Positions 1,124-60,388 of a DNA stretch of 64,000 bases are shown here, one piece after another. This stretch comes from Eledone cirrhosa. Taxonomy: Eukaryota. Position 1 is the first letter of the stretch; every line of letters starts with the position of its first letter. The stretch is taken from positions 225,308,001-225,372,000 of the forward strand of contig OZ024741.1 in assembly GCA_964016885.1 (NCBI GenBank). Reading direction: 5' to 3'. The notes below the pieces were generated by a model. The model searched no databases and was not told the origin of the DNA. It saw nothing but the letters and a program-made list of their open reading frames with translations. The position numbers and the translations under genes are program-made.

Positions 1124-1199
1124 ACAGATTAAAGTTTAAGCAAAGAATCGCTGCTTTGACCCTTAACGGGGTCTTCTGAAACTAACAAAGTCAATCTGT
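1124..1199 (-). ncRNA. Variant type I hammerhead in pLTR of the older Hydra-like family (also 3331-3406 +, 36559-36635 -, partial 46689-46742 -)
   Basis: Consensus guuu CAGAAGA (y)ccc guuaa ggg(u) GAAA gcag...uugc UU aaac, plus a distal acagauu/aaucugu helix. Each copy has private core mutations (this one has CAAA for GAAA). Confidence 0.55.
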
Positions 1200-2697: not shown

Positions 2698-3454
2698 AAC
2701 AAATGCGACTTACGTCTCCGAACTTTTGTGTATTTACATGTAGGTATGTATGTGCGCTTGTTATATACGAATTTATTTATTTATATACGTTTATTTAATT
2801 ATTTATTTATTTGTATACACGCACACACACACATACACATATTTATATGTGCGTGGTTTTGTATACCTATGGCAAGTGTTTCCACGTATGCTTGTGTATA
2901 TACGTATTTGCATGCGTGTATGTATTTATTTAATTTCTATTACCTCTGTATAGTATTTTATTTACTTTATTCTTAACTCTGAAGCGGAGATTCATTCGGT
3001 TTCCTAGTTAGAAATTTAGTGTACGACTTCAGCTATACCATTTACGTGGTTTTGTCTTTGCGTGCAAATATGACGTATTATCTTCGTTTTTTCCGTTCAT
3101 TGCCAGAGAACGTCTCTAAGAACCCCCTAAGAGAACATTAGTCTACGACTTCTTTTATACCATAAACGTGGTTCTGTCTTTGCGCGTAATTGTTTTTCAC
3201 CGCTCCTATTAATGACATATTATATTCGTTTTTTCCCGTTCTTTGCATGGGAACGTTTCCACGAACCAAAGTATTGTCTTCCTGTCTTCCTCCGGTTGCA
3301 ACGTTTTTTGAAATATCAACTTCTACGTTTACAGATTGACTTTGTTAGTTTAAGAAGATCCCGTTAAAGGTGAAAGCAGCGATTCTTTGCTTAAATTTTA
3401 ATCTGTTATTTTAATAAATATATATATAACAAAAATATAAATATAACAAAAAAC

Positions 3455-4988: not shown

Positions 4989-5019
4989 CAAAAATGGAAC
5001 TTCATTGTGATCGGGTATA

Positions 5020-5082
5020 TTTTATTATACATATTTCGGAGGTGCTGAGCTGGCTACAGCAGTGCGTCCTCATCAGATAGGA
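5020..5082 (-). ncRNA. Minimal type I hammerhead in PLE pLTR remnant (4985-5240)
   Basis: uau CUGAUGA gga...ucc GAAA uaugua UA aua; same family as 31691-31752. Confidence 0.65.
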
Positions 5083-5258
5083 CAGGGTGATGCATGACAT
5101 GCCCTGACAGGGTGGATGGTTGGGATCCAGTCATGGTAGTGACAGTTATGTAAATTACTGTTATATATTTTTAAGCTTTCTTACACGCACCCTCTGTATT
5201 ATATGTATTATATGTAAGTTTTTTCATGTATCAATCTTAAGATATATATATATATACA

Positions 5259-5312
<54 letters not shown>

Positions 5313-5358
5313 TTAAACAAATAATGAATAAACAATTCCTTATATTAAACAAAAAAAG

Positions 5359-5513
5359 TTCATTATTTAACGATCGTTTCTAGGATATATATGTGTTAGA
5401 ATTGGTATGCATATTCAACAGATCTATGTACAAAATTATACAAAATTATACAAATTATCAAGATTAAATATACATACCAAACACATATATACGCCGTCTT
5501 CAGAAATAATGAA
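5359..5513 (-). ncRNA. Type I hammerhead with long stem II (copy 1)
   Basis: Reverse complement of 14646-14800. Confidence 0.75.
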
Positions 5514-6330
5514 GTATATTTATTGATAATAACAACAATTCAAAATTTCAGTTCAAAATTGACCAATGAAAACACAAAGGGTTAAATGCAGTTCGGTGTG
5601 TGTATATACATGTAAAACCCTTACACATATTTTACAAAAATGTATGTATAATTTGTATACGCATACTAAAAGGATGGATGCAAATACAAAATTTCAAGGT
5701 TAATGTCTCTGTAAGCTTACAATGCGCAGATAAGATGCGCATTGATACTTATGAAGTCAAGTATATAAATATATTTTTACATACTCACACATATCAGTAC
5801 AATCACACATACACGCGCGTATATGCATAAATATACACATAACCACGAACATACAAACACACACACACCCCCACTCACATTTATATATGTGGATATAAAA
5901 TCATAAGCACATGGATATTAATTCACTCACATAAAACACTGGCACACACATTTTTAGATCAAGATACAGAAATTAGGTGGGAGGGGGGGGGAGGGGTCAG
6001 TATTCAACTGTCTGAGCAGACTGCCTAATATAAATGTATCTATAAATTAAGAAAAATAAAAAAATAAAACAATAAAATATAATAAATATAATATAATATA
6101 CATACACATACAGATATATACACATACATACATGTACACACACATAGAAATATTTACGCATACACACATACGCACATACATATACAGTCATACACACACA
6201 TACACCTACACGAACATACACATACACATATATAAAGATATATATATATACACACACACACACGCAACACATACACACATATACATATATATAAAAAATA
6301 AATAATAAAGATATATACATATATATATAT

Positions 6331-6373
<43 letters not shown>

Positions 6374-6763
6374 CATACACATACATCTAAATATACATAC
6401 ACATACATACACACATACATGTACACACATGTACATACATATACGTACATCGATATACATATATACATATATATATATACACACACATAGACATATAGAT
6501 ACATACACACACAACTTACATACACACATATATATATACATGTATATTCATACATAGAATTAGATATATAATCATACATACATATGTACTTACTTATACT
6601 CATATATACAAATACATACGCATCCATATATGCGTATATACATAAAAAACCACTACAACCTCACCTAACACAGACATACAAATAAAAATAATAATAAAAA
6701 GGCATATGTATATACATACACACACGCATTAATAGAGATATATATATACACACATACATACAC

Positions 6764-6796
<33 letters not shown>

Positions 6797-7088
6797 TATA
6801 TATATATATATACACACACATACACTCATACATATATATATATATATATATATACACATAGATATCAACACACTCATACCACCATAAATACACATACAAA
6901 CACCCACATATACATATATATACACACGTATATATATATATATATATATACACACACATAAAAAACAGACATGCACATATATATATATATTTTTTTACAC
7001 TTATATATACACATATTATATACACATACACAATCTCACTTATACACACATACACATAAGTTATATTATAATAATAAAGAATAATATA

Positions 7089-7124
<36 letters not shown>

Positions 7125-7214
7125 CATACATACATACATATACATACATACATATAAACATATACATACATAAATACACACATACGAATATAGACATATA
7201 TTCACACATAGACA

Positions 7215-7285
<71 letters not shown>

Positions 7286-8414
7286 ATATACACAGACACA
7301 TATACACACTCACATATATATATATATATGTGTGTGTGCGTGCACACACACATATATACACACACACACACATATACACATAAACACATACATATGCATA
7401 CATGCACACACACGCACATATATCACATAGATACGAAGATAAACATATAAATAGAGAGACATGCATATATATACAACACACATACACACACATACATACA
7501 CACGCATATACATATACATATATATATACATATATATATTCCTATATATACATGCATACACATATATACACATATATACACATACATACACATATACGTA
7601 CACACATTCACATACACATACATATATAATGCATATATACACATATATAACATACATATACACACTCATATATACACACGCAATCTTACGTTCATATTTG
7701 CATGCGCATATATGTATTTTTATATTTAGATATAAATACCCAAACCTATATAGACACCTACCTACATATATATTCATACATAGACGCTTACAAATACAGA
7801 TGATAATAGTATGGGGGAAAGGGGGGGTTTGGAGAAGGGGATCAAAGTAAATATATGTTTCAAGAAACATAAAATATTTTCCGTATCTTTATCCAATGTA
7901 TGTTCTTACATATTTTCAGTGTTAGGAAATACAGCAAACAAGAACTAAGGCAAAATCTATGCATCTCAAAATAAATAAGTATACCATTAATCATATGTTA
8001 ACTAAACCAAAGATAGTCAACATATTGATTTCTAAGGTGTAAATTAGTTAGGTTTATAATATTTGAAGCAGAATTTTGAAGTTAAACAGTAGTAGATTAT
8101 TAATTACAGTATAACTAAATTAAAGTTAATAACGTTATGGTATCAATATTAGGAAATGAATTTAGTAATAGGGAAAAAAACCCAAATAAAAATAAAATAA
8201 AGTATTACATCGGTAGTAGAATATAAATTATATGTTAACTAAATTAAAAATTATATATTTATTTCAATAGTATATGTTAATTAGGTATACAATACATAAA
8301 GCAGATATTGTATTTCATCAATAGCATAATATAATTATATGCAAACAGAAATCAAAATTAATACGCATACATATACATATACATACACATACATATATAC
8401 ATATACATACACAC

Positions 8415-8453
<39 letters not shown>

Positions 8454-8975
8454 TACATACACACACATATACATACACACACACACATACACATACACAT
8501 ATACATATACATATCTTTTTCAAAAAATTGCATAGAATATATTAACTAGGTATATATCCAAAACACATCCCATTCTATGATTACATGACATTCTGCAATT
8601 CGTCTGTATAAGGATACTAATTTTAAGCAAATTAAAATTAAAATTTTTAGGTTGATTAAACTAAAACCAAATAATAAATATATTTCTAAAATGTATATTA
8701 ATTAGGTCTATAATACTAAAAATTATTTCTCTGTCATTGGATACACGATATTATTTTGTTATATTTTATCTGTAAAAGAATTATAATAAAAGGTTTAAAT
8801 AAATTAAAATTAATCTATAAATTAAATTACTAAGTATATATTAGTAGTATTTAAAGGTTTTTCACAATTTATGATTACATAATATTTTATATTCTCATCT
8901 GTAATAAAATATTAATTAAATTAAAATTATAGGTTAACTAACATTTAAATTAAATTAATTTCTAAAATAATGTTA

Positions 8976-10478
8976 TTAATTAGGTTTATAATATTTAAAT
9001 GTTTTTTTTAGTTTATGATTACACGATATAATTAATTCCTGTCGTTTATTTAATAAGATATCCTTAGACTTCATTATTTCAAATAGTTCTTGGGAACATA
9101 ATCTACATTCATTTCTATTATTTTGATAAGGGGTGGCTCTTTTGAGCACACTCCAGGTCAAATCATATTTTATATTCTTATTTTTATAACTATTGATTTT
9201 TTCTGCTAGAGATGTTGTATTAGCCAGTGCGGCATTTTTAAAACTATGCTTGTGGGTATTAAACCTTGTCTTAAAATTGTTAGAGGTAGCTCCTATATAT
9301 GAGCAAATAGAATCTTTAGTTTTAACATTACATTTATAGACTATGTTGTTAACAAGACAATTCCCTTTTAATGGGCAGTTTGCTTTGTTTCTACAGTTAC
9401 ATCCTTTCGTTAATTCTGTATTTGAGGAGATATTATGGTTAATTTGATGTACTGGTGGTATACTTATGGTTTTCTTACATTTATATGCATTATATGCACT
9501 TATATTTTGTTTTATGTTATTTGTTGTAGAGTATGAGAATTTAACTGTAGACCTATTTAAGATTTGATGGTATTTGTGGTTTGGCGGGAAGTTTTTCTCA
9601 AGGATATAAAAAAATTTTTTAGCAATATTATCCTTAACTTGTAAATTAAAAGGAGCATTATACCAAGTAACCCGTCTATTACGGTTTCTATGTTGTTTAT
9701 TATTTTTATTATTTTTATAGGTTGTATCGTGATTTTTACTAGGAGGATTAATGTTAATGATCCCACCACAACTATTTTTAGTTATATTTGTAGATTTAGG
9801 TGTTTTATCCTTTTTATTAGGAGTTTTATTATTAATATTTATTATAGTTGTATGATGAGTAGTTTTTTGAGAGTTACTATACTTTATATTAGAAGATTTA
9901 GTATTTTGGGGTATAGTGTGGGTGGCATTTAGGTGTGTACTTTTCATTTGGTGTTTGTTGGTAATATTATGTTGTATGCTTTCAGTATTCTTAGTAGAAG
10001 GTATATACTCTAATCTATTTTTGTGGCCACTTCTATCTAGAGCTTCGTTATAGAAGGTCGCATTTTTATCAAATACATCTTGGTTAGAAGAAAGGTTAGA
10101 AATTCTAAGTGATATATTATATGCAAGGTTTTTAAGGATAGATTTAGGGTGATTAGATTGTGAGTGTATGTAATGTAAGTTTTGGTTAGGTTTATGGTAA
10201 GGTTGGTAGATACCCGTAGCTAAATCTAAAGTTATATCTAGGAAATTTACTACTTTACTTGTTTTTTCAAAAGTAATATTAAGATTATAATAGTCTTTAA
10301 GGAAAGTTCGAATATGTTTTTTGTTTTTTTCGATTTCTGAAAGGCTAAGGTTGTTAGAAAGAAGAAGACAGTCATCACGATATAAACCACCTTTGAGGTG
10401 GGGAAAAGAGGCATTTATGTTGAAAAGGAGAAAGAGGCCCACAAGATCAGTAATTTGGGCGGAATCGCTTGAACCCAT
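8976..10478 (-). pseudogene. 5'-truncated inverted copy of the PLE RT-GIY-YIG ORF
   Basis: 500 aa matching the C-terminal part of 15123-17585 (one C/S difference); truncated at the inversion junction 10488. Confidence 0.95.
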
Positions 10479-10491
10479 AGTAATATCATTA

Positions 10492-11185
10492 TACTTGGTA
10501 TAATGCTCCTTTTAATTTACAAGTTAAGGATAATATTGCTAAAAAATTTTTTTATATCCTTGAGAAAAACTTCCCGCCAAACCACAAATACCATCAAATC
10601 TTAAATAGGTCTACAGTTAAATTCTCATACTCTACAACAAATAACATAAAACAAAATATAAGTGCATATAATGCATATAAATGTAAGAAAACCATAAGTA
10701 TACCACCAGTACATCAAATTAACCATAATATCTCCTCAAATACAGAATTAACGAAAGGATGTAACTGTAGAAACAAAGCAAACTGCCCATTAAAAGGGAA
10801 TTGTCTTGTTAACAACATAGTCTATAAATGTAATGTTAAAACTAAAGATTCTATTTGCTCATATATAGGAGCTACCTCTAACAATTTTAAGACAAGGTTT
10901 AATACCCACAAGCATAGTTTTAAAAATGCCGCACTGGCTAATACAACATCTCTAGCAGAAAAAATCAATAGTTATAAAAATAAGAATATAAAATATGATT
11001 TGACCTGGAGTGTGCTCAAAAGAGCCACCCCTTATCAAAATAATAGAAATGAATGTAGATTATGTTCCCAAGAACTATTTGAAATAATGAAGTCTAAGGA
11101 TATCTTATTAAATAAACGACAGGAATTAATTATATCGTGTAATCATAAACTAAAAAAAACATTTAAATATTATAAACCTAATTAA
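10492..11185 (+). pseudogene. ORF 3' end within the upstream pLTR (linker + GIY-YIG)
   Basis: Duplicate of 16892-17585. Confidence 0.95.
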
Positions 11186-11709
11186 TAACATTATTTTAGA
11201 AATTAATTTAATTTAAATGTTAGTTAACCTATAATTTTAATTTAATTAATATTTTATTACAGATGAGAATATAAAATATTATGTAATCATAAATTGTGAA
11301 AAACCTTTAAATACTACTAATATATACTTAGTAATTTAATTTATAGATTAATTTTAATTTATTTAAACCTTTTATTATAATTCTTTTACAGATAAAATAT
11401 AACAAAATAATATCGTGTATCCAATGACAGAGAAATAATTTTTAGTATTATAGACCTAATTAATATACATTTTAGAAATATATTTATTATTTGGTTTTAG
11501 TTTAATCAACCTAAAAATTTTAATTTTAATTTGCTTAAAATTAGTATCCTTATACAGACGAATTGCAGAATGTCATGTAATCATAGAATGGGATGTGTTT
11601 TGGATATATACCTAGTTAATATATTCTATGCAATTTTTTGAAAAAGATATGTATATGTATATGTGTATGTGTATGTGTGTGTGTGTATGTATATGTGTGT
11701 GTATGTATA

Positions 11710-11748
<39 letters not shown>

Positions 11749-12875
11749 GTGTGTATGTATATGTATATATGTATGTGTATGTATATGTATATGTATGCGT
11801 ATTAATTTTGATTTCTGTTTGCATATAATTATATTATGCTATTGATGAAATACAATATCTGCTTTATGTATTGTATACCTAATTAACATATACTATTGAA
11901 ATAAATATATAATTTTTAATTTAGTTAACATATAATTTATATTCTACTACCGATGTAATACTTTATTTTATTTTTATTTGGGTTTTTTTCCCTATTACTA
12001 AATTCATTTCCTAATATTGATACCATAACGTTATTAACTTTAATTTAGTTATACTGTAATTAATAATCTACTACTGTTTAACTTCAAAATTCTGCTTCAA
12101 ATATTATAAACCTAACTAATTTACACCTTAGAAATCAATATGTTGACTATCTTTGGTTTAGTTAACATATGATTAATGGTATACTTATTTATTTTGAGAT
12201 GCATAGATTTTGCCTTAGTTCTTGTTTGCTGTATTTCCTAACACTGAAAATATGTAAGAACATACATTGGATAAAGATACGGAAAATATTTTATGTTTCT
12301 TGAAACATATATTTACTTTGATCCCCTTCTCCAAACCCCCCCTTTCCCCCATACTATTATCATCTGTATTTGTAAGCGTCTATGTATGAATATATATGTA
12401 GGTAGGTGTCTATATAGGTTTGGGTATTTATATCTAAATATAAAAATACATATATGCGCATGCAAATATGAACGTAAGATTGCGTGTGTATATATGAGTG
12501 TGTATATGTATGTTATATATGTGTATATATGCATTATATATGTATGTGTATGTGAATGTGTGTACGTATATGTGTATGTATGTGTATATATGTGTATATA
12601 TGTGTATGCATGTATATATAGGAATATATATATGTATATATATATGTATATGTATATGCGTGTGTATGTATGTGTGTGTATGTGTGTTGTATATATATGC
12701 ATGTCTCTCTATTTATATGTTTATCTTCGTATCTATGTGATATATGTGCGTGTGTGTGCATGTATGCATATGTATGTGTTTATGTGTATATGTGTGTGTG
12801 TGTGTATATATGTGTGTGTGCACGCACACACACATATATATATATATGTGAGTGTGTATATGTGTCTGTGTATAT

Positions 12876-12944
<69 letters not shown>

Positions 12945-13034
12945 TGTCTATGTGTGAATATATGTCTATATTCGTATGTGTGTATTTATGTATGTATATG
13001 TTTATATGTATGTATGTATATGTATGTATGTATG

Positions 13035-13070
<36 letters not shown>

Positions 13071-13362
13071 TATATTATTCTTTATTATTATAATATAACT
13101 TATGTGTATGTGTGTATAAGTGAGATTGTGTATGTGTATATAATATGTGTATATATAAGTGTAAAAAAATATATATATATATGTGCATGTCTGTTTTTTA
13201 TGTGTGTGTATATATATATATATATATATACGTGTGTATATATATGTATATGTGGGTGTTTGTATGTGTATTTATGGTGGTATGAGTGTGTTGATATCTA
13301 TGTGTATATATATATATATATATATATGTATGAGTGTATGTGTGTGTATATATATATATATA

Positions 13363-13395
<33 letters not shown>

Positions 13396-13785
13396 GTGTA
13401 TGTATGTGTGTATATATATATCTCTATTAATGCGTGTGTGTATGTATATACATATGCCTTTTTATTATTATTTTTATTTGTATGTCTGTGTTAGGTGAGG
13501 TTGTAGTGGTTTTTTATGTATATACGCATATATGGATGCGTATGTATTTGTATATATGAGTATAAGTAAGTACATATGTATGTATGATTATATATCTAAT
13601 TCTATGTATGAATATACATGTATATATATATGTGTGTATGTAAGTTGTGTGTGTATGTATCTATATGTCTATGTGTGTGTATATATATATATGTATATAT
13701 GTATATCGATGTACGTATATGTATGTACATGTGTGTACATGTATGTGTGTATGTATGTGTATGTATATTTAGATGTATGTGTATG

Positions 13786-13828
<43 letters not shown>

Positions 13829-14645
13829 ATATATATATATGTATATATCTTTATTATTTATTTTTTATATATATGTATATGTGTGTATGTGTTGCGTGTG
13901 TGTGTGTGTATATATATATATCTTTATATATGTGTATGTGTATGTTCGTGTAGGTGTATGTGTGTGTATGACTGTATATGTATGTGCGTATGTGTGTATG
14001 CGTAAATATTTCTATGTGTGTGTACATGTATGTATGTGTATATATCTGTATGTGTATGTATATTATATTATATTTATTATATTTTATTGTTTTATTTTTT
14101 TATTTTTCTTAATTTATAGATACATTTATATTAGGCAGTCTGCTCAGACAGTTGAATACTGACCCCTCCCCCCCCCTCCCACCTAATTTCTGTATCTTGA
14201 TCTAAAAATGTGTGTGCCAGTGTTTTATGTGAGTGAATTAATATCCATGTGCTTATGATTTTATATCCACATATATAAATGTGAGTGGGGGTGTGTGTGT
14301 GTTTGTATGTTCGTGGTTATGTGTATATTTATGCATATACGCGCGTGTATGTGTGATTGTACTGATATGTGTGAGTATGTAAAAATATATTTATATACTT
14401 GACTTCATAAGTATCAATGCGCATCTTATCTGCGCATTGTAAGCTTACAGAGACATTAACCTTGAAATTTTGTATTTGCATCCATCCTTTTAGTATGCGT
14501 ATACAAATTATACATACATTTTTGTAAAATATGTGTAAGGGTTTTACATGTATATACACACACCGAACTGCATTTAACCCTTTGTGTTTTCATTGGTCAA
14601 TTTTGAACTGAAATTTTGAATTGTTGTTATTATCAATAAATATAC

Positions 14646-28200: not shown

Positions 28201-29455
28201 TAATGTAGTATGTTGTAGTGGTGGTGGTGTGTTGTAGTTCTGATGTAATGATATAATGTAGTATGTTGTAGTGGTGGTGGTGTGTTGTAGTTGTGATGTA
28301 ATGATATAATATAGTATGTTGTAGTGGTGGTGGTGTGTTGTAGTTCTGATGTAATGATATAATGTAGTATGTTGTAGTGGTGGTGGTGTGTTGTAGTTCT
28401 GATGTAATGATATAATGTAGTATGTTGTAATGGTGGTGGTGTGTTGTATCTCTGATGTAATGATATACTGTAGTATGTTGTAGTGGTGGTGGTGTGTTGT
28501 AGCTCTGATGTAATGATATAATGTAGTATGTTGTAGTGGTGGTGGTGTGTTGTAGTTCTGATGTAATGATATAATGTAGTATGGTGTAATGGTGGTGGTG
28601 TGTTGTATCTCTGATGTAATGATATACTGTAGTATGTTGTAGTGGTGGTGGTGTGTTGTAGTTCTGATGTAATGATATAATGTAGTATGTTGTAGTGGTG
28701 GTGGTGTGTTGTAGTTCTGATGTAATGATATAATATAGTATATTGTAGTGGTGGTGGTGTGTTGTAGTTCTGATGTAATGATATAATGTAGTATGTTGTA
28801 GTGGTGGTGGTGTGTTGTAGCTCTGATGTAATGATATAATGTAGTATGTTGTAGTGGTGGTGGTGTGTTGTAGTTCTGATGTAATGATATAATGTAGTAT
28901 GTTGTAGTGGTGGTGGTGTGTTGTAGTTCTGATGTAATGATATAATGTAGTATGTTGTAGTGGTGGTGGTGTGTTGTATCTCTGATGTAATGATATAATG
29001 TAGTATGTTGTAGTGGTGGTGGTGTGTTGTAGTTCTCATGTAATGGTATAATGTAGTATGTTGTAGTGGTGGTGGTGTGTTGTAGCTCTGATGTTATGAT
29101 ATAATGTAGTATGTTGTAGTGGTGGTGGTGTGTTGTAGTTCTGATGTTATGATATAATGTAGTATGTTGTAGTGGTGGTGGTGTGTTGTAGTTCTGATGT
29201 AATGATATAATGTAGTATGTTGTAGTGGTGGTGGTGTGTTGTAGTTCTGATGTAATGATATAATGTAGTATGTTGTAGTGGTGGTGGTGTGTTGTAGCTC
29301 TGATGTAATGATATAATGTAGTATGTTGTAGTGGTGGTGGTGCGTTGTAGTTCTGATGTAATGATATAATATAGTATGTTGTAGTGGTGGTGGTGTGTTG
29401 TATTTCTGATGTAATGATATAATATAGTATGTTGTAGTGGTGGTGGTGTGTTGTG
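25217..29455. repeat. 53-bp minisatellite, ~80 copies
   Basis: Unit gttgtagttctgatgtaatgatataatgtagtatgttgtagtggtggtggtgt. Confidence 0.97.
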
Positions 29456-31112: not shown

Positions 31113-31230
31113 ATTATTGTATATATATCAGGTACACTATTTAAATAAAACACAATATATATGATGCACGTTATTTATAAAATACTCATTTCTATAAAAG
31201 TCATTTTATAATATATATATATATATATAT

Positions 31231-31586
31231 AAAATAGAATAGCTTTCACCGTATTTTTGACTAAAGGAATTTTAGCCTGATAATGGGGTTTAGAACCCTC
31301 AGATAAATGGAAAAAGATGAGTATTGACGTATATGGGAGTCCAACCCACATCTTTGGTTATCGCGACCACTGTAGCTTCTAATTTGAATGTAGCTTCTAA
31401 TTTGAATGGAATGAGATGGGTGATGTGTTTCTGTAATGGTAGCACAGTGGTCGCGATAACCAAAGATGTGGGTTCGACTCCCATGTACGTCAATACTCAT
31501 CTTTTTTCATTTATCTGAGGGTTCTAAACCCCATTATCAGGTTAAAATTCCTTTAGTCAAAAATACGGTGAAAGCTATTCTATTTT
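31231..31586. repeat. Inverted repeat (143-bp arms, 70-bp spacer) containing a tRNA-like segment
   Basis: 31231-31373 mirrors 31444-31586 with few mismatches; B-box gggttcgactccc; abuts (TA)n. Confidence 0.85.
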
Positions 31587-31690
31587 CTAATTTCAAACCT
31601 GCTCACTGTTTCAAAACATACTTACTTGATATATATATATATATTATTCAAAATATTAATAAATGAAGACATTCACGTCATCAAAATATG

Positions 31691-31752
31691 TTTTATTATA
31701 TATATTTCGGAGGTACTGTGCTGTTTTTACAGTACGTCCTCATCAGATAAAA
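31691..31752 (-). ncRNA. Minimal type I hammerhead in pLTR remnant
   Basis: uuuuau CUGAUGA gga c guacugu...acaguac c ucc GAAA uauaua UA auaaaa. Confidence 0.8.
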
Positions 31753-32719
31753 TACACAAACTGATGTATGACATACCTCAACTGTGCTGATGGTTCAATT
31801 CCAGTCTTGGCAGTCGCTTTGAATAATCAATGAATCTTGTTTAACATTTGGTTATATATATATATATATATATTATAGTTCATTATTTGTGTATGTTTGT
31901 CTCCTATGCACTTAAAAATCAGTGGCCCAATCATGTTCAAACTTAGCATGTGAGTTCCGTAGTCCTAGGAATAGGTTTTCCTTACACTTGAACGTATATT
32001 AATTTGTTTATATGTCTGTTTGTCTCTTTGTCAATCTGAAGTAATGGTGGTCGTCGTGAGTTATCGTCTTCACTATGACGGAATGTGACGGAAAATAGAG
32101 GGAATGAAGAATTGAAAATTTGAGAGAAAGTCAGCTCGTACTGAAAGCCAAAAATGGAACTAAACAAGTAAGTTAACAATGCATGAATGAGGAAAGAAAG
32201 AGAGATAAAGAAAGCGAAGAAAGTGAGCGACACACGTTCAACATTCTGCTGTCAAGCTCACCTGAAAGTTTCTTACCACTATCTTCTTCATATCTTTACT
32301 GTGTGTGTGTGAATGAGTGAGTGTGTGTGTGTGTGTGTGTGTATGCCACATCTTTGCATATAGCTCTGTATGTATATGTCTGTGTATCAGCCTCTGATTA
32401 AGTTTTGGGTTCTTTATTTGATTTATTGAAATACTACTAAAAATAACACTTGTGAAACCTGTAATATTTGTTTGCATATTCACTTCCCTTAGTTTTGGTT
32501 GTTGTTTCAAAAAAACCACAGAATGTTAATGCAGTGTGTCCTCATTCAATGAAATTCGATACGGCTTAGATCCATCATTAACAAAAATGTTTTAAATATT
32601 TTGATATATAATAGTGACATTGAAAGCTGCAAGCAAAAATGCCGCCAAAGAATAGACCTTCATTTGGAAGAAAATCTCATAAAACTATGGCAAAGCAGCT
32701 ACAAAAGGTGATTAAACGA

Positions 32720-34609: not shown

Positions 34610-35688
34610 TATACACTAATATATATATATATATATATTATACATAGCTAAATATCTTCGAGAAAAAACTTTGCAAGGCGGAACAAATGGACCTTAAATC
34701 CCCAATTAAGTATTTTCAATAAAGATAATGATATAACATGAAATTTTGAAGTATTTTTTTCCTTTGTAGAAAAATAAGGTTATGATAGCATATGAACAAA
34801 GTAGACAACTTTCGGTGTATGATTATGAAAGTATAATTGAACATACTGTTTAATCTCAGGTTATCTGAGATTAGCCATAATGTGATATTTAATCATGTGA
34901 CAGTGTGCCAGCTTTCTGACTTGGTAGTCCTTAAAACGTTTTTGATACGTATGGATTTGTTAAAAGATCTTTCTGGTGATGTTACTGTGACCGGAATTGT
35001 CAACAATATTCTCAAACTAATTTTGTCAGTTAATAAATGTAGCAACACCGAAGGTTTCATATCTAGATTAAAAAAATTTGCTTCATATTGTAATAATAAA
35101 TGGCGGCGGATTAGCAAGATAAAAATATTTTGGTATGGGTTCCAGCTCACTGCGCTCTGTATTCAAGTCCCGTTGAGGTCAACTATAATTTTCAATCTTT
35201 CGAGGTGAATAAATAAACAAACAAAACAGCCAAGTACTGAAATCGATTCTTCCTCTCTCTCGTTATCTTCTCCGACCTGAAGAGGGATGAACCTTGAAAT
35301 ATTTAAAATGCCCAAAATACACCATGTCTTAGGACGGCGCCCTTACGACTCCATAAGGAATAAAGAGTCTTTTCGAGAGTGTTGATAAATGTTGCATTTC
35401 TGTAGCAAAATCTTCATCAGAAAAGTGACATGCTAACAATTTCGTTTCTTTTCAAGCTTACTTTCAGACACTGTTGGATATTTCAGCAATAAAAAGAAAA
35501 TTTTCAGCTAATCACTTAACGTTCAGTTAATTCCACAATAACAATATCAATCGAAAAACCAAACAAGATTTTCTGAATTTGGCGTCTTCTAGCATATCAT
35601 AGCTGCCAGTCCTTTCCCCCCGCCTCGCATCAGGTGCTGTGTCATTCTGAACACTCTGTTTTCGATATATACGTATATATATATATAT

Positions 35689-36318
35689 ATGGAAAAAATG
35701 AAACGACATTTCATTTCTCTCTCTTAGTACGGCTGTTACTTAAATATAAGTATGTATACGTTTACAAACAAACCGAGCATTATAAAAAATATTCGGTAAA
35801 TCCATACGTACATATATATGTGTGTGCATGTATGTATATATATATACATACTACTGTACGTCTGTATACATATATGTATGTACGTATGCATACTTATATT
35901 TAAGTAACAGCCGAGTGAGAAATGAAATTTCGTTTCATTTTTTCCATTCATCGTTTTCGGTGTGCCCGGCCGATTAACACTCGATATGCAAATTAGGCTG
36001 CTCAGCCGTTAATATGCATAAGGAAAGTATATACTTTCAGACGTTCAATCATCTGGCAGGAATGTATACGGTGCTGACGATAGCTAATAAGCTTGAAACT
36101 AGCACATCGTTCCTTTTCAGTGTTGAACAAAAGGGCAACGATGGTTGCTAAATACTGTACGGCTTAATTCGGGTTGTTTGTTTACAAACAAACCGAGCAT
36201 TATAATAAATGTTCGGCAAATCCATACGTACATATATATATATGTGTGCATGTATGTATATATATACATACTACTGTACGTGTGTATACATATATCTATG
36301 TACGTATACATACTTATA
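35689..36318 (+). mobile_element. Retrozyme-like repeat copy with partial tandem duplication and inverted 5' piece
   Basis: 35689-35760 is inverted; 35761-35900 is repeated at 36181-36318 (period 420); octamer 35986-35993; HHR 36068-36110 (U16.1 changed to C). Confidence 0.8.
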
Positions 36319-36548
36319 TGTACGGCTTTTGGAGGAAGGAGTAACCAGCAGTACGTTGTATTATTACGAAAAGGTGTAGCAGAGAATCCTGCGTGAACTA
36401 ACAGCTCGGGTTGAAACTGCTTACCTCGAAGATTCATTCGCCATCGTTCATGTGAATACTCCGTTTAGTTGGTATTTGTTGGTCTACAAAGGGTTAATGT
36501 TTACTGGCAAGAGGTGCAACTGGGCTGGCTTGCCTCGCTTATATTATA

Positions 36549-36984: not shown

Positions 36985-39110
36985 ACTCACTCAGACTCAG
37001 AAGCTCCCGCGTCTTGCGACGCATGAGGCAATCATAGTGTTCCATCGCGTTCGGTCAGCAGCCAGTTGCACAGCGTCCCGCCATTGTCTGTTTGTCGCCC
37101 GCAGGTCCCTGCCAACTGTCTGGCGCCAGTTCATTTTGAGTCGCCCTCTCCGTCTGCTTCCCTGCGGGCTCCATTTAACTACTTGCTTTGCCAGTCTCTC
37201 CGGGGGAAGTCTCAAAGCGTGTCCAAACCAGCCCAGGCGTCGCTTGCAGATGGTAGAAGAGACTAGCTGCTGGTTGGTGCGGTTCCTGACTTCCTGGTTT
37301 GTTACATTGTCACTCCATTTAATCCCCAGGTCTTTCGCAGACACCTGGAATCGAATGCGTCCAACTTCTCTTGGCTGGTCTTAAGGTGCCATGTTTCACT
37401 TCCGTACAAGTGTGGACAGCACGTTGCTGTTGTAGAATCTCATCTTTGTTTTGAGGGTGAACTTCCTGCTCTTCCAGATCTTGTCAAACTGGTTAAATGC
37501 TGCTGAAGCCTTTCCCATTCTACATTGCAGTTCACTGTCCATGGTGCCCTCATTGTTAATGGAGCTTCCTAGGTAGGTGACGTTGTCCACTATCTCCACC
37601 TCCCCTGTTGAATGAAGACACTAGTTGGTGATGGGTGTGTCCCAGATAACATGCTTTTGGTCTTCTTGGCACTGATATTGAGACCTAAGCTTCCTGCTTC
37701 GACATTGATATTGTTCACAATGATTTGCAGGTCAGCTGTGCTCTCTGCAAGTGCAGCAATATCGTCCGCAAAGTCCAGGTCAGACAACTTTTGCTCTCCC
37801 ACCCAAGATATACCCTGGTCTTTAGACGCTCTTCTTAGTACCCAGTCAAAGAGAATTGGAGAGAGCGAGCAACCGTGACGCACGCCAGTAACCACCTCAA
37901 ACCAGTCACTGTAACCATCCTCTGTCCGTATGCAGCACTTGGAGTTTGCGTAAATCTGTTTGATTGCCGAAATGACTTTCTGGGGCAGACCATACTCATG
38001 CATGATGCTCCAGAGTGACGGTCGATGAATGCTATCGAATGCTTTGGGGAAATCGATGAAGCTGGTGGCGAGGGGCCTCTGGAATTCGTTGTACCACTCA
38101 ATGATGCGGCGTAGCGTAAAGATCTGCTCTGCACAGGAACGTTTTGGTCGGAACCCTGCCTGTTGTTCTCGCAGTTCCCGGTCTACCATGCCACGTATGC
38201 GGTTCAGGATCACCAGACAATAGACCTTCCCTGGAATGGAGAGAAGTGTCACTCCCTTCCAGTTGTCACAATCGGCAAGGGTGACAACGGCTCCGTTTCT
38301 CCAGTCTTCTGGGACTTCACCCGTGTTCCACACAAGATTACATAAGTGGCCCATCCACTTGACCATGCTTTCGCCTCCTGACTTCAGCATTTCAGCAGAA
38401 ATGCCATCCATACCTGGTGACTTGTTATTCTTAAGGGTTTTGATGACCATGCGGACTTCCTTCTCGGTGAAGTCATCAGTATTGATAGGCAACAAACTAG
38501 TAGGTTCCTTAGTGTCTGCTGGCACACGTGGCTCCGGCCTGTTGAGGACTTCCTTGAAATGTTCAGCCCATCTGACTAACTTTTCTTCACCCTTGGGAAG
38601 CAGCGTACCATCTTTCGCTTTCACCGGGCCTGAGTTAGCTCTAGAGCTGCCGGTGATTTTCTTGGCAATTTGGTACACAGAACGCATGTCATTGCTGCTT
38701 CTGCCTCCTCTGCCTTACTCTCAAGCCACATTCGTTTGTCCTTTTGGGCACTGCGTTTCACCTCCTTGTCCTTGTCAACATACTGCTGATATACCTTGAT
38801 GGCCTCTGGGTAGTGGCATGCCTCAGCTGGTGTAGGGGCTTTCCTTTCATTAATCAGCTGCCAGGTGTTGTCGCTGACCCAAGCTTCCCTGAGGGACTTC
38901 CTGTAGCCCAGGATTTCTTCCCCTGCCGCTTCCATGGTCTTCTTCATTTCCTCCCATCAATTGACCGAGCCTGGTGCAGCCTCCTCAAGGACAGCAAATC
39001 TGTTCCTCAAAGCAGCCTCGAACTGTGCTTCTTTGTCACCGTTCTTCAGCTTGGTAGTGTCAAAACGCCTTAGTGGGTGCTTTCTTCTGCTTCCTCAGTC
39101 TGATTTTAAG
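36985..39110 (-). mobile_element. 5'-truncated, frameshifted RTE-clade LINE
   Basis: ORF pieces 38947-38621, 38687-37590 (KSPGMD, QAGFR, FIDF.KAFDS, LDFADD), 37599-37396 and 37344-36997; (ctgagt)-type tail. Confidence 0.92.
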
Positions 39111-39414: not shown

Positions 39415-40004
39415 CACACGCTCAAAAACACACACACACACACATACACACACACACACACGCATATATCTCTATATATATATAAACTCAGTGAGAAGGA
39501 CAGAAGAACAGAGAGACATCCAGAATGCGAAAAAACTTGATGAAAGAGGAGAGACGGAGAGAGGGAGAAAGAGAGAGAGAGAGTGAGAGAGAGAAGGGGG
39601 AGAGAGAGAAAGAAAGAGGGAGAGAGAGAGAGAGAGAGATAGATACAGCGAGAGAGAGGGGAGAGTGAGATAGAGAAAGAGAGAGAGAGAGAGACATAAA
39701 AACCAAGCCCACAGCTAGATTGTATGACCAATGTTAATAGGATGTTTTAAGGGTGTTTTATATAGTTAATGTAGGGTCAATTAGGATTATATTACTCTAC
39801 TGGCACAGCAGGGAGAGGGGGTAATAAAAAGTTGAATATGTTAGACCTATTTACTAAATGACACCATGGTGTTGTGTTGTAGTATTGTTATGTTGTGCTG
39901 CTGTGTTGTAATGCCTTGGTGTTGCAGTGTTGTAAATGTTGAAGAGTCGTGGTGTTGTGGTGTTATGGTGTTGTGGTGTTGTGTTGGGAATGTTGTAGTG
40001 ACGT

Positions 40005-40698
40005 GGTGGTGTGGTGTTATGATAATGCTTTGGTATTGTAGTGATGTAGTTATGTGGTGTTGTGATGTTGTGTTGTAATGCATTAGTGTTGTAGTGTTGT
40101 GAATGGTGTAGTGTTGTGGTGGTGTGGTGTTATGATAATGCCTTGGTATTGTAGTGATGTAGTGATGTGGTGTTGTGATGTTGTGTTGTAATGCATTAGT
40201 GTTGTAGTGTTGTGAATGGTGTAGTGTTGTGGTGGTGTGGTGTTATGATAATGCCTTGGTATTGTAGTGATGTAGTTATGTGGTGTTGTAATGTTGTGTT
40301 GTAATGCATTAGTGTTGTAGTGTTGTGAATGGTGTAGTGTTGTGGTGGTGTGGTGTTATGATAATGCCTTGGTATTGTAGTGATGTAGTTATGTGGTGTT
40401 GTGATGTTGTGTTGTAATGCATTAGTGTTGTAGTGTTGTGAATGGTGTAGTGTTGTGGTGGTGTGGTGTTATGATAATGCCTTGGTATTGTAGTGATGTA
40501 GTTATGTGGTGTTGTGATGTTGTGTTGTAATGCATTAGTGTTGTAGTGTTGTGAATGGTGTAGTGTTGTGGTGGTGTGGTGTTATGATAATGCCTTGGTA
40601 TTGTAGTGATGTAGTTATGTGGTGTTGTGATCTTGTGTTGTAATGCATTAGTGTTGTAGTGTTGTGAATGGTGTAGTGTTGTGGTGGTGTGGTGTTAT
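40005..40698. repeat. 113-bp minisatellite (~6 copies) inside a G/T-rich low-complexity field (39866-41240)
   Basis: gataatg recurs at 40021, 40134, 40247, 40360, 40473 and 40586. Confidence 0.92.
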
Positions 40699-40871
40699 GG
40701 TGATGTGGTGTTCTGCTGTGGCGTTGTATTTCTTTGATGTTGTGGTGTTGTGATGTAGTGTTCTGAATTTGTAATATTGTGGTGCTGTAGTATGTCGGTA
40801 TTGTAATGTTGTAGTGTTGTAATGATGTGGTGTTGTAGTGTTGTGGTGTTGTGGTGTAGTAGTGTTGTGAA

Positions 40872-41095
40872 GTAATATTGGTCTCTAATTTAAGCACAAG
40901 GTCAGCAATTTTGATGAGGGGGGAAAGTCGATTAAATTGACCCCAGTGCGTTACTGGTACTTTATTTTATCAACCCCGTAAGGATGAAAGGCATAGCAAA
41001 CCTCGGCAGGATTTGAGCTCAGATCGTAAAGGGCCGTAACTCTATGTCATAAAGTATGTTGTCTGACGCTCTACCGATACTGTCAGTCCACCACC
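40872..41095 (-). mobile_element. tRNA-derived SINE
   Basis: Reverse complement of the 30934-31112 family. Confidence 0.75.
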
Positions 41096-54522: not shown

Positions 54523-55080
54523 TATATATACATACATGCACACATATATATATGTACGTATGGATTCACCGAACATTTATTATAATGCTCGGTGTGTTTG
54601 TAAACAAGCATCCCGTATTAAGCCGTAGTGTCTAGCAACCATCGTTGCTCGTTTGTTCAACACTGACAAAGGAACGCTGTACTAGTTTCAAGCTTATTAG
54701 CTATCGTCAGCAACGTATACCTTCCTGCCAGATGATTGAACGTCTGAAAGTATATACTTTCCTTATGCATATTAACGGCTGAGCAGCCTAATTTGCATAT
54801 CTAGTGGGTTAATCGGCCGGGTGCACCGAAAACGTTGCTGACGATAGCTAATAAGCTTGAAACTAGTACATCGTTACTTTGTCAGTGTTGAAAAAACGAG
54901 CAACGAAGGTTGCTACACACTACGGCTTAATACGGGATGTTTGTTTACAAACACACCGAGCATTATAATAAATATTCGGTGAATCCATACGTACATATAT
55001 ATATGTGTGCATGTATGTATATATATATACATACTACTGTACGTCTGTATGCATATATGTATGTACGTATACATACTTAT
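54523..55080. mobile_element. Retrozyme-like repeat in inverted (divergent) arrangement with two hammerheads
   Basis: HHRs at 54674-54716 (-) and 54832-54874 (+), both CUGACGA/GAAA/GUA; octamer 54791-54798; continues the fragment at 47524-47642. Confidence 0.8.
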
Positions 55081-55098
55081 ATATATATATTTATATAT

Positions 55099-55852
55099 GA
55101 TGTTCGATTTGTCAAGCTATTTAAACGTATGTTATAACTCTGAGACCTATCTTATCGAGTGCTTTGCTAACTCATCACCTCATATAAGTAGGCCGAATTT
55201 ACTTGCAAACCGCCAGAGATTCGATTTTACTGATTTCCAATTAGATTAATCTCCTAGATTTAATAATTAACCAATTAATTTAATTGGAAAATTCTGTTGA
55301 TTGGTTAATTATTTGTGTTAGTTTTATAACATCAAGTCGAAAGCTTATGATGATTAGCGGAAATTAAAATATTTCCATTCGCTAGCATTTGAATGACCCG
55401 CCAAAAACCAGGGGTTATTTCCCTTGCCGGAATTAACACGTGATAACTATAGATTCGATTAGCAGCCGTGAGAGCAACAACATATTTTATCACTCCCGAT
55501 CCTAACCAGAACGAAAACCTGCTGATAAACTGATTCCTCTGTTCAGTCACCAATACCATGACCTTGCCATTCAAGTAAGTCTGATATTTGATTTCGGAGT
55601 CAGAGAAACATTTCAAACGCCCGTTTGATTTGTCCAGGTCTATTTTTATCAACCTGATTAGTTTTTTCGTTACTTTGATATGTATTGTGTGTTAGTTTAG
55701 CCTACCACAATGTTCGATTTCTCAACCTATTTAAACGTATGTTATAACTCTGAGACCTATCTTATCGAGTGCTTTGCTAACTCATCACTTCATATAAGTA
55801 AGCCGAATTTACTTGCAAACCGCCAGAGATTCGATTTTACTGATTTCCAATT
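55099..55852. repeat. Unclassified element with ~145-bp terminal direct repeats (period 610)
   Basis: 55099-55243 is repeated at 55709-55852; flanked by TA/TATC microsatellites. Confidence 0.75.
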
Positions 55853-55861
55853 ATATATTTA

Positions 55862-56138: not shown

Positions 56139-59100
56139 TGACTTAGTGACCTGGCCACCGGCCAAACGTCAACATCAACAACTATGGCACTGCTAGCTCA
56201 CCCCTTCCTCACCAACAATATAAAAATCCCCAGCACCACCACCGACATAGCCAACAACAATAACAGGCAACTTCAGCAAAAAGTATATTATATTATTGTA
56301 ATGCACTGGGTGATTGCTGGCCTTGTGCCTGGAGTGGAGACAATTATTAATAATTTCATTCTTAAGCCACGCAATGCTCACATTAAGGAACCACTCATGA
56401 TAATAACAATTTAAAAAAAACAACAAAAAGAAAACCCCGTGACCAAGAAATACCGGGATGGCGGCCGGCGGGGAATAGCCGTGTCTCTAGGGGAGAACGA
56501 CCCCTCTAGTCTTGGTTGACACTCGTTCTAGAAGTGGTAACACGAAATGATTACCCCTTGGCGAATAAGGATAAAACGCGACAAAATAAAGTAAATGTCT
56601 AATGATAAAATCTCATACCGGATCGGCCGTCACCCGGGTAAAAAAGGGCCGCGTCCCTCAGAGAGGAACCAGACTGGGGTCGAAAAATCAGCTAATGGTT
56701 CAAACCTTCCCATCACTTCGGAGCTGGAGACCTCCCATAACCGGAATACTCCTACTGTTGGCCCTCCATGCTCACCACCAAGAAATCCAAAGAAAAAGAG
56801 AGAAAAATGGTCAAGGGAAGATAATAAAGAAGTCCTTGAGGCTTTCTACACTGCCATGTACTACCCATCAAATACATCGAATACAGAACAGACATATATC
56901 AACTGGAAAAAGAAACATCCCGAAAACAGAGGCTATATTGACAGCAACAAACTAGCCAATATACGAAGAAATATTGTAAGAAAAAAGTTACTAACTGATA
57001 TAGAAATTGATCAGATCAAGCTATTAGCACAAAGTCAGCGAAGGGAAAATGAAACACGTGTCAGTGAAAACGAGGTAAATTGTAACACTTCGAATCCCAG
57101 GGTTGGGGCGGAATCACTGGCAACAGAACAAATTAAAGAAAGGATCGAAAAAGTGGAGGGAGTGCATGCTCAAGATGAAACTCCAAATGAAAATAATGAG
57201 ATCGTAAATGATAAAGAAATGAATGAGAATGAACTTGCCAACTTGAAGGATGAAATTATGATCGAATGGATGAAAATGAAAGAATCTGACATGGGGCAAC
57301 GAGACACCCTCCCTAAGATCCAGAACTCCAAACAGAACCAAAAGATAATACACAAGACTAACATAATTCTCAAAAACATTATCATCACAAACAAACTAAA
57401 TATTACTGATTTAAATCATCTCTATTATGCATCGGCTAAAGTCACCACTCACTTATGTGGAGTGAAGATGAAAAAACAAAGGAATTCCCACAAGAAATCT
57501 ACTTGGCAAGAGAACATCAACCACCAAATAAACCTTCTCCGATCTGACATAGAAATTTTAACAAACTATAAAGTAGGTGAACATGTTAAACAAACTAAAC
57601 TTAGAAAATTGAAAAAAAAGTACAGTATAAAATCAACAAGTGACATAGACATGCTGATAGAAATAATCAAACAAAAAGTGTCGGCCAAAGCTGCTCGTAT
57701 AAGGCGCTTTGAAAAACGATCTAGATTCTATAAGGACAATAATATGTTCAAAAACAACCAAAGAAACTTCTACAGAAAAATTGGTAAGTCAACAATAACT
57801 GCTAAATCAATACCACCCAAGGAGGAAGTGCAAGAATTCTGGGAAAAGATCTGGGCTGAAGAAAAAGTTCATAACATACATGCCCCATGGATAGACAGAC
57901 AAATGAAAGATACAGCTCACCTTGAGGAACAAATATGGGAAAATATAACAGTTGAACAGTTGCGCTTGGCTCTAAGAAAAACCAGCAAATGGAAATCTCC
58001 AGGAAAAGACAAAATACAAAACTTTTGGATAAATGCCTTCACAGAGTCTCATGAGCTGTTAGCCCAACTTTACAATGAAATAGTTTAGGAGCCAGAAAAG
58101 ATACCATCATGGATAGTTAACGGCATTACATTCCTGCTTCCGAAGAATGATGAGACAAACAATCCCCAAAATTACAGACCGATAACTTGCTTGACCACAA
58201 TGTATAAAATTTTAACATCAGTCCTAACTGAATACACATATGACCACCTGATAACAAATGACCTATTTCCCATTGAGCAGAAAGGGTGTAAACGAGGCTC
58301 ATATGGCTGTAAGGATCAGCGTCTGGTTAACAAAATGATACTGGAAGATTGTCATAATAGATACAAAAATCTATCGATTGCTTGGATAGATTATAAAAAA
58401 GCATTCGATAGTTTGCCACACAGTTGGATTGAAAAATGTTTAGAGATTTTCAAAATATCCCCCGTTGTCAGGAGGTTTTTGTCATTCAGTATGAAGACAT
58501 GGAAAACGACACTCCTTTTGAATAGTGAAACAAAATCACTGGAAGCTGGAGAAGTTAATATTAATTGTGGAATTTTTCATGGTGACTCTTTATCACCGCT
58601 TTTATTCTGCATCGCACTTATACCATTAAGTAAAATGCTCAATGAAACAAAACATGGATATAAAGTCTATGACAAAACCATTAATCACTTGTTCTACATG
58701 GATGACCTGAAACTATTTGCAAAAATTGATGAACAATTGCAAGGGTTATTATCCACTGTGGAGCAGTTCAGTGATGACATTAAAATGGAGTTTGGACTAG
58801 ACAAATGCGCCAAAGCAACGTTCACCAGAGGAAAGCTGCTGAAGAGTTCAGACATTAATATTGATCGGGGGAACGTGATAAGAGAACTTGATCAAGAAAA
58901 AAACTTACAAATATCTAGGTGTTTGTGAAGGAGACGGAATCAAGCACTCGACAATGAGGGAAAGGATAAGGAAGGAATGTTACCGCAGAGTAAGAGCAAT
59001 CTTAAGAACGGAATTGAATGCAAGAAATAGGATCGATGCCATAAACACGCTTGCCATACCAGTAGTAACCTACAGTTACAATGTCATCAACTGGTCAAGC

Positions 59101-60388
59101 ACAGAGATCCGTAGGCTCGATACAAAAATTCGAAAACTCTTAACCATGCACAGAATGCATCACCCTAAGGCAGATATAGATAGAATATATCTCCCTAGGA
59201 AAGAAGGAGGACGTGGGTTAATCCAGTTAGACATTGCGTTGAAAACTGCAACAATTGGATTATCTACATATCTAAGGGAATCACATGATTGGATGATCAA
59301 ACTCGTTTTGAAACACGAAAGCATCAAAAGATCATATTCCATTACAAAAGATGCACAAAGATACAGTAATGGACTACAAATTTCAGAAGTCCCATTTACT
59401 GCTGAAATGGAAAACACAGAAAAAGCAAAGCAGGTAAAAGTAACTGCAAAGAAAGAACTGCTACAGAAACTGGCTAAGAAATGGCAAGAAAAGCCTCTGT
59501 ATGGAAAATACCCAGAGCGAGCTAACAATCCTGATGTTGACAAAACTTTAACCCATCAGTGGTTGGCATCCGCTGGACTGAAATCGGAGACTGAAGGACT
59601 GATTATATCAGCACAAGATCAGTGTCTGCCAACAAAAAATTACCAAGCCAACATAATAAAAAATGGATGCAGCCCATTATGCCGTGTATGCAAAAAACAA
59701 CCAGAGACCATTGACCATATAATTTCAATGTGCAGTCCTATAGCTCCAACCGAATACCTAAACAGGCATGACAGAGCTGCACAATACATACATTGGATAA
59801 TGTGTAAGCATTTTGACCTGCCCCATCAAAAGAATTGGTGGGAGCATCAACCACCTCCCATACTTGAAAAAGATCACATCTCAATCTTGTGGAACTTTAG
59901 CATCCAAACAGACCGAAAAATAGATGCAAATAGACCTGATATAATATTGAAGGACTTCAAAAAGAGGGTATGGCTGCTAATTGATATGTCTGTTCCAATA
60001 GACAAGAATGTATCTATAAAAACATTTGAAAAATTGAGCAAGTATAAGGACCTGGAGATAGAAATTGGAAAAATGTGGAAATTGAGAACTAAAACAATAC
60101 CAGTGGTTGTAGGCGCTCTGGGAATGATACCTAAGGGGTCTAATGATTACTTATCGCAAATCCCAGGAAACCCGCGTATAGGAGAAATACAAAAGATAGT
60201 ACTAATGGGAACTGCCCATATACTAAGGAAGATTCTGTCAATATAAGTACATCACAAGTCTAAACACCAAAGATGCATGTGTGAGTATGTATGTTCTTTC
60301 TTGAACATGGCAGACCTTGTTGTCTCTTGAGATGCTGGTTGTGACTTGGTGATAACTCGTATGAACATAAAGCAAGATAAATGCAACT

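Follow-up and report, generated by a model that had tools for sequence, protein, structure and literature searches.

A small hammerhead repeat of Eledone cirrhosa with the insertion layout of Penelope-like elements

Which enzyme copied a short, non-coding hammerhead repeat into the genome of Eledone cirrhosa, and from what form of RNA? The question is raised by a locus near the middle of the 64-kb window analyzed here (contig OZ024741.1, positions 225,308,001 to 225,372,000), where an inverted fragment of the repeat is followed by more than one unit in head-to-tail order. We propose, and consider it likely, that the 420–440-bp repeat is a non-autonomous Penelope-like element (PLE), that is, a non-LTR retrozyme, for which PLE machinery, inserting copies into TA-rich DNA, used an RNA template exceeding a single cleaved unit.

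The repeat, its four loci and its predicted ribozyme

The layout was read from a self-comparison of the window and from base-level alignments. Unit coordinates run from m1 to m420, with m1 at 35760 and the hammerhead strand taken as sense. The family comprises six pieces at four loci, A to D (Table 1), counted inside the window only; matches from a BLAST search with the unit were used only above ~85% identity, and a permissive BLAST of the 420-bp unit was swamped by TA repeats. Two of the four loci are inverted (A and D), and two of the four exceed one unit. The unit, of 420–439 bp, closes on itself in two loci; it has 36–37% G+C, no LTR, and longest ATG frames of 84 and 45 codons.

Table 1. 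Coordinates of the repeat, its predicted ribozyme and the 16-kb PLE in the window
Feature	Position	Strand	Remarks
(TA)n target run, locus A left end	35666..35688		no discernible target-site duplication
Locus A inverted, 5'-truncated arm	35689..35761	-	m123-188, reverse complement, plus 7-nt insertion
Locus A full unit	35760..36179	+	420 bp, 36% G+C, longest ATG frame 84 codons
Locus A terminal redundancy	36180..36319	+	m1-140, sense arm 3' end
Predicted type I hammerhead, locus A	36068..36110	+	from motif anatomy; predicted cut after 36104
Locus B partial tandem	24447..25216	-	~1.75 units, m238-420-420-143, period 438-439, two hammerheads
Locus C 5'-truncated piece	47525..47651	-	~m71-190
Locus D inverted arm	54523..54834	-	m191->420->83, intact hammerhead core at 54710
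Locus D sense arm	54832..55082	+	m309->420->140, intact hammerhead core at 54838
16-kb PLE, inverted 5'-truncated arm	5308..10488	-	stops 138 nt before the point reached by the sense arm
16-kb PLE, sense part, partial tandem	10492..21388	+	period 6400, ends on (TA)n
16-kb PLE, open RT + GIY-YIG ORF, 813 codons	15144..17585	+	Hydra-clade motifs RWR, DKT, YRDD, CxCx5C
16-kb PLE hammerhead	21045-21199	+	descriptor scan
16-kb PLE hammerhead	14646-14800 (hit at 14656)	+	descriptor scan
16-kb PLE hammerhead	5359-5513 (hit at 5503)	-	descriptor scan

At locus A, the inverted piece followed by ~1.3 monomers with a 140-bp terminal redundancy at period 420, as described in the first-pass annotation, is confirmed by alignment, with the end at 36319 rather than 36318. 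The sense part (35760–36319) is 560 bp or 1.33 units long, and its redundancy (35760–35899 versus 36180–36319) spans 140 bp; of 138 aligned bases, 131 are identical, and there are two 2-nt slips. The inverted arm includes a 7-nt segment absent from the sense unit. The two arms are joined head-to-head (5'-to-5') with a 2-nt overlap, GT, at 35760–35761, and the 3' end of the sense arm falls inside a predicted hairpin loop. The arms of locus D (54523–55082), each shorter than one unit, are also joined 5'-to-5', via ACG at 54832–54834. The annotation had placed here, at 54523–55080, two copies joined at an AACG microhomology; the join is real and the locus ends at 55082, but the shared bases are only ACG, because the native upstream base of the plus arm is T. 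The 3' end of the inverted arm of locus D lies in the (ATT)n tail of a LINE, that of locus B (m143) in a TA-rich array, and that of locus C at a (TA)n run of 180 bp; on its 5' side, locus B abuts a 53-bp satellite.

Divergence within loci is 5.3% (31 of 588 sites) and alike at three loci (~4–6%), and between loci it is 9.1% (251 of 2770), site tables that omit two slippage-prone stretches (m52–91 and m134–149). Private alleles are common to the arms of one locus at 11 sites in locus B and six in locus D; because these arms carry alleles absent from the other loci, B and D each represent one event. No diagnostic site ties the inverted arm of locus A to its sense arm, and since no private allele is shared, the short arm there could be a separate insertion.

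The predicted hammerhead has a 6-bp helix I, both core strands, a 4-bp helix II with U.U at its base, and a loop-less helix III that is a 6-nt palindrome. A strict descriptor gave seven matches in the window, three of them in the ribozyme-repeat family; 100 shuffled windows gave 0.01 on average. The predicted core is intact in three of the five family copies (25140, 54710 and 54838). The locus A copy (36074) has U16.1 changed to C at the cleavage site and is likely inactive, and the copy at 24701 in locus B has a changed first core strand. One core is thus changed in the only tandem hammerhead pair of the window (25140 and 24701), and two consecutive units with complete ribozymes were not seen in the window. 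The palindromic helix III is described in PMC4209133 as the form that cuts as a dimer, and it predicts dimer-dependent cleavage for this repeat.

Broader searches with the ribozyme were negative. An Rfam scan of the whole 64-kb window gave no match at the gathering score, and 79 weak Rfam matches at 35600–36400 included no hammerhead; those to hairpins and miRNAs on the TA-rich palindrome were rejected as composition noise. Covariation in the hammerhead was not above that of shuffles (197 of 500), as expected for five close copies. A scan with the ribozyme core gave zero matches in bacterial and archaeal genomes, a scope outside which animal genomes lie. Modeled as a circle, the whole unit has a stable predicted fold (z -7.9 and -5.9; none of 100 shuffles did as well), with stability that comes largely from a 100-nt imperfect TA-rich palindrome at m45–147; comparing the folds of two subfamilies, we found no two-sided compensatory changes and 14 broken pairs (Fisher P 0.48).

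Insertion ends and the neighboring elements

The 3' ends of the six pieces lie at m140, m140, m143, m188, m189–193 and m83 and face outward; the six 5' ends are scattered. Five of the six 3' ends are at two preferred sites ~50 nt apart, m140–143 and m188–190, which lie 215 and ~270 nt beyond the cut site. Groups of three and two ends within 6 nt occur in 0.13% of uniform draws and in 0.7% of draws from TA/AT positions, but are not significant (P 0.15) for draws from TATA/ATAT positions, a pool without m188; the statistic was picked post hoc and concerns six ends that are not independent. It was run on ends 139, 139, 139, 188, 190 and 83, and later refinement left the clusters unchanged. The left end of locus A carries a 48–55-nt extension (a candidate 'tail') and the right end does not; PLE tails described in print, at 30–40 bp (PMC8557442, PMC3846280), are shorter than this extension and than the 138 nt of the local PLE.

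Four of the six 3' ends lie no more than 3 nt from a (TA)4+ or (TAA)4+ run, against a background of 8.4% of positions, and a fifth enters a degenerate TA array. The first-pass view that copies abut TA-rich runs thus holds strictly for four ends and loosely for the fifth, but not for the right end of locus A (36319), which abuts ordinary sequence. TIRs, TSDs, common tails and poly(A) were sought at the six pieces and found at none; 14 of 30 terminal bases match in locus A. A MITE does not fit the six pieces, as their ends differ between copies and no TSD is present. Helitrons have fixed 5'-TC and CTRR-3' ends with a subterminal hairpin, and the six pieces, read directly, show no such fixed ends, so that a Helitron derivative does not fit them either. 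Fixed termini with TIRs and TSDs, or Helitron-type ends, were what the annotation had named as evidence against its own reading; both were looked for and are absent from the six pieces.

The window also holds an intact, young 16-kb PLE, for which self-comparison upholds the inverted and partial-tandem layout attributed to it earlier. Its copies are 99.75% identical and it has (TA)n on both sides. Its 6.4-kb unit is long for the clade owing to TA/TG-rich non-coding DNA, published Hydra-clade families being mostly <3 kb (PMC8557442). The single ORF encodes a telomerase-like RT with a C-terminal GIY-YIG domain and an RWK-like motif. The motifs RWK, DKT and CxCX5C define the Hydra clade (PMC8557442), and the ORF is conserved among 98 aligned of at least 120 relatives, the best named of which is from Argonauta hians (42% over 56%). 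The protein model has a pLDDT of 86 and its top eight fold matches are TERTs, while Pfam and PDB sequence searches with the protein gave no match. We assign the element to the Hydra clade by its motifs, the fold matches of the predicted structure, its hammerhead and its (TA)n target. An N/K/T-rich low-complexity insert at about residues 500–590, modeled with low confidence, lies between thumb and linker and recalls the N-rich inserts of Adineta PLEs (PMC3846280).

In the hammerhead of this PLE, helix I is 10–11 bp long, the helix II region measures 116 nt, and helix III is an 8-nt palindrome without a loop. Scans with helix II limited to 60 nt missed it and a 220-nt limit found it; standard descriptors would miss this 116-nt helix II form. 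The long helix II region and the lack of loop III distinguish it from the Hydra-clade PLEs described in PMC8557442. About 40 nt downstream lies a second sequence that pairs perfectly with the 3' strand of helix I and could act as an off-switch; two copies of the small repeat have a competing hairpin resembling that of the PLE hammerhead. A 23-nt inverted match (5219–5241 and 21449–21472) lies just outside the (TA)n runs that flank the element and nowhere else in the window.

Other repeats of the window are noted here in their own right. A second hammerhead family, at 4989–5241 (-) and 31629–31850 (-), has copies ~73% identical with the 3' end on (TA)n, a 31–32-nt helix II and a palindromic AT helix III, changed in the 5076 copy. 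The stretch at 46002–46135 (+) carries, between two TA runs, a minimal hammerhead-like motif whose helix I is weak and whose palindrome is 4 nt long; it looks like the truncated end of a third PLE family. Four more inverted-repeat insertions on TA-rich runs (708–997, 1109–3421, 31228–31629 and 46389–46539), of which 31228–31629 has a 40-nt extension on one arm only, may be PLE-type inverted insertions rather than MITEs. Directly after locus D comes a partial tandem (55100–55856; period 610, 147-bp redundancy, 96.6%) ending on TA/TATC repeats, in which a hammerhead scan found no match. Satellites at 25217–29454 and 39867–40880 are the 53-bp repeat (80 copies, 95%) on which locus B borders with its 5' end, and a 113-bp repeat related to it; the long open frames in them are products of repetition. 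LINE fragments, split over several frames, lie at 37590–38714 (-), 49180–54522 (+), 56595–60246 (+) and 60715–61854 (-); they include endonuclease/RT/zf-RVT elements with (TAA)n tails and an RT fragment beside locus A that we take, from its appearance, to be RTE-like.

The probable mobilizing enzyme and the RNA template

The sequence itself shows how the pieces are laid out, that their 3' ends cluster, that the targets are TA-rich and that the ribozyme site is read through. The mobilization that we propose would run as follows. A tandem locus would be transcribed, and an RT/GIY-YIG protein, likely of the Hydra clade, would bind the repeat RNA in trans, as PLE biochemistry suggests, and nick both strands of (TA)n DNA. 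cDNA would start inside the RNA at m140–143 or m188–190, the RNA being either an uncleaved linear multimer or a re-ligated circle. Two cDNAs, one per strand, would stop at variable points and join 5'-to-5' via 2–3 shared bases. The inverted arm, the one-sided tail and the length above one unit would all arise because two variably stopped cDNAs are joined in this way. The 5'-to-5' joins and outward 3' ends are common to both inverted loci and the 16-kb PLE. PLE insertions are described as an inverted copy plus a one-sided tail (PMC8557442, PMC3846280), the tail has been traced to two internal RT start sites (PMC11167929), and Hydra-clade PLEs are reported to target (TA)n (PMC8557442). A U.U at the base of helix II is present in 14 of 26 Hydra-clade rows in File S2 of PMC8557442; the repeat hammerhead has it too, together with a loop-less palindromic helix III like that of the local PLE.

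The first-pass annotation had inferred reverse transcription by PLE machinery and had pointed to the 16-kb element as the model. The inversion, the outward 3' ends and the TA targets speak for the machinery; the link to that particular element is weakened by its lack of shared sequence and its youth. That the 16-kb family itself mobilizes the repeat, recognizing RNA structure and not sequence, we regard as rather unlikely, even though it has the same layout, TA target and hammerhead type and an intact ORF only 14 kb away. Its similarity to the repeat does not rise above shuffled controls (best score 24.3 bits; shuffled mean 23.3, maximum 34.2), and nhmmer found no match to the repeat in the PLE. 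It is also far younger (0.25% versus 5% internal divergence, or 99.75% versus 95% identity), its tail is 138 nt against ~50 nt for the repeat, and a shared (TA)n preference alone predicts proximity. At least two further hammerhead families occur in the window, which makes the presence of several PLE families likely. Resemblance to the partner's 3' end is usual among non-autonomous PLEs and retrozymes (PMC8557442), and 24 of 57 Xenopus retrozyme families matched known elements (Li 2026, 10.64898/2026.07.22.740005). The lack of any such resemblance to the local PLE also counts against copying by a PLE in general. The 16-kb element in the window probably does not represent the cognate autonomous family.

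Two explanations dispense with a PLE altogether. A LINE enzyme (RTE-like or Tx1/L1-like) that mobilized the repeat as a SINE, with twin priming as the source of the inversions, has in its favor the RT fragments at 37.6–38.7, 50–54 and 58–62 kb and the one locus on a LINE's (ATT)n tail. In L1 twin priming, however, the 3' end of the inverted arm adjoins the 5' end of the sense arm on the RNA, and the corresponding neighbors here are 232 and 226 nt apart on the unit. Moreover, both 3' ends of locus A are at the two preferred sites, and there is neither a common tail nor a TSD; we therefore find a LINE very unlikely. Events at the DNA level (fold-back repair, slippage or unequal exchange in a satellite), or a MITE or Helitron, with no retrotransposition at all, strike us as highly improbable. 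The TA-rich palindrome at m45–147 could promote fold-back, and unequal exchange has been proposed for the tandem growth of retrozyme arrays (Li 2026), but the ends vary between copies and form no TIRs, the inversion affects element sequence only and never the flank, and the 3' ends cluster on TA while the 5' ends scatter, a polarity characteristic of reverse transcription.

Returning to copying by a PLE enzyme, we can narrow the form of its template. Four of the six pieces cross the cut site, with five crossings and no indel, three of them through intact cores, and none of the 12 piece ends is within 35 nt of it. Because the pieces read through the ribozyme site and no ends lie near the cut, the template was not a cleaved linear monomer, and a template RNA longer than one cleaved unit is supported. 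To this extent the circular or multimeric template suggested earlier stands, but the circle cannot be told apart from a linear multimer: an uncleaved linear tandem transcript gives the same redundancy, which thus does not single out a circle. Circularly permuted starts, the check suggested with that proposal, are not what the six pieces show, since their 3' ends, the presumed cDNA starts, cluster. Nor can such a test separate the templates, because with either one the 3' ends would be set by internal priming and the 5' ends dispersed by truncation. A PLE enzyme is reported to prime internally on unprocessed RNA (PMC11167929), and because internal priming explains the clustered 3' ends, a circular template is not required. 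We rate an uncleaved linear multimer as a slightly better than even prospect, a re-ligated circle as a substantial possibility short of that, and end-to-end template jumps as improbable.

A monomeric RNA circle, produced when the hammerhead cleaves and ligates and copied by an RT that runs round it more than once, is accordingly a reading that we hold open without favoring it. A circle should leave identical units at insertion and a source array mixed units. The similar ~4–6% divergence within three loci looks as if identical units had decayed after insertion, the indel-free crossings (three through intact cores) agree with a circle, the predicted fold of the unit as one is stable, as given above, and related retrozymes are described as abundant circles (PMC7229834). 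Against this, at two sites the same pair of alleles occurs within each of two different loci (P 0.03–0.26 under an identical-start model, according to rate variation), and these shared polymorphisms lean weakly to mixed templates. The stable fold is dominated by the TA-rich palindrome and has no compensatory changes, the loop-less helix III needs a dimer to cut, and two of the five cores are changed. PLE minimal hammerheads are reported to cut poorly (PMC4209133), and unprocessed RNA to be the main PLE substrate in vitro (PMC11167929).

Relation to known elements and what the insertion ends offer

The repeat shows two of the features that define retrozymes: a predicted type I hammerhead within the unit and head-to-tail units of the right size and G+C, without ORF or LTR. 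The metazoan non-LTR retrozymes of PMC7229834 and 10.64898/2026.07.22.740005 share its non-coding tandem unit (150–450 bp, G+C <50%) and its type I hammerhead, in which helix I has 6 bp, helix II is short and helix III is palindromic; the axolotl motifs, with a one-pair stem, a palindromic tetraloop and a U.U mismatch, are similar. Unlike those retrozymes, the repeat occurs here in partial tandems only, with no two intact ribozymes in a row. Inverted joins, tails and microsatellite targets at retrozyme insertions are not described in the consulted portions of those two texts. With the Hydra-clade PLEs of Craig et al. 2021 (PMC8557442) the repeat shares the partial tandem with an inverted 5'-truncated copy, a possible one-sided tail, the (TA)n target and the 3' hammerhead, often with U.U at helix II; it differs in having no ORF and no homology to the local 16-kb element.

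Non-autonomous PLEs such as MRC1 (Chlamys; PMC8557442) are likewise short ORF-less units with pLTRs in head-to-tail copies, and in the pLTR-driven trans-mobilization of Adineta (PMC3846280) PLE enzymes act in trans and leave direct and inverted repeats. Both systems have 3' or pLTR sequence in common with an autonomous family that is known, unlike the repeat, and most Chlamys elements lack hammerheads (PMC8557442). The minimal hammerheads of truncated PLEs form opposite-strand pairs 100–700 bp apart (PMC4209133), as do those at 54710 (-) and 54838 (+) here, but the repeat, a self-contained 420–439-bp unit, is more than a long element's truncated end.

Much of the framework is already in print (2014, 2020, 2026), namely the retrozyme class, its link to PLEs and the idea of a circular template. 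A circular template was proposed for PLE copies longer than a unit (Cervera & de la Pena 2014, PMC4209133), PLE reverse transcription was proposed for circular retrozymes (Cervera & de la Pena 2020, PMC7229834; PMC7761336), and retrozymes were argued to be non-autonomous PLEs (Li, Clavereau & Pollet 2026, 10.64898/2026.07.22.740005). A literature search, thin on subscription journals, found no publication on cephalopod retrozymes or on the mapping of retrozyme insertion ends.

The mobilizer of animal retrozymes has so far been argued from co-occurrence, ribozyme type and pLTR homology (PMC7229834; Li 2026), and a 2020 review holds that the repeats show no motif naming their helper (PMC7761336). 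Insertion ends are a separate and cheap line of evidence on this point, seen here in miniature. A much stronger claim would be that retrozyme insertions show a PLE footprint as direct evidence of mobilization and that a Hydra-clade RT primes inside circular ribozyme RNA without shared sequence, via hairpin structure downstream of a dimer-type hammerhead; we think that combination quite unlikely. The useful part of the finding is a testable PLE insertion footprint on a retrozyme, and the two presumed RT start sites mapped on this 420-nt passenger would make it convenient for studying PLE priming and the use of circles.
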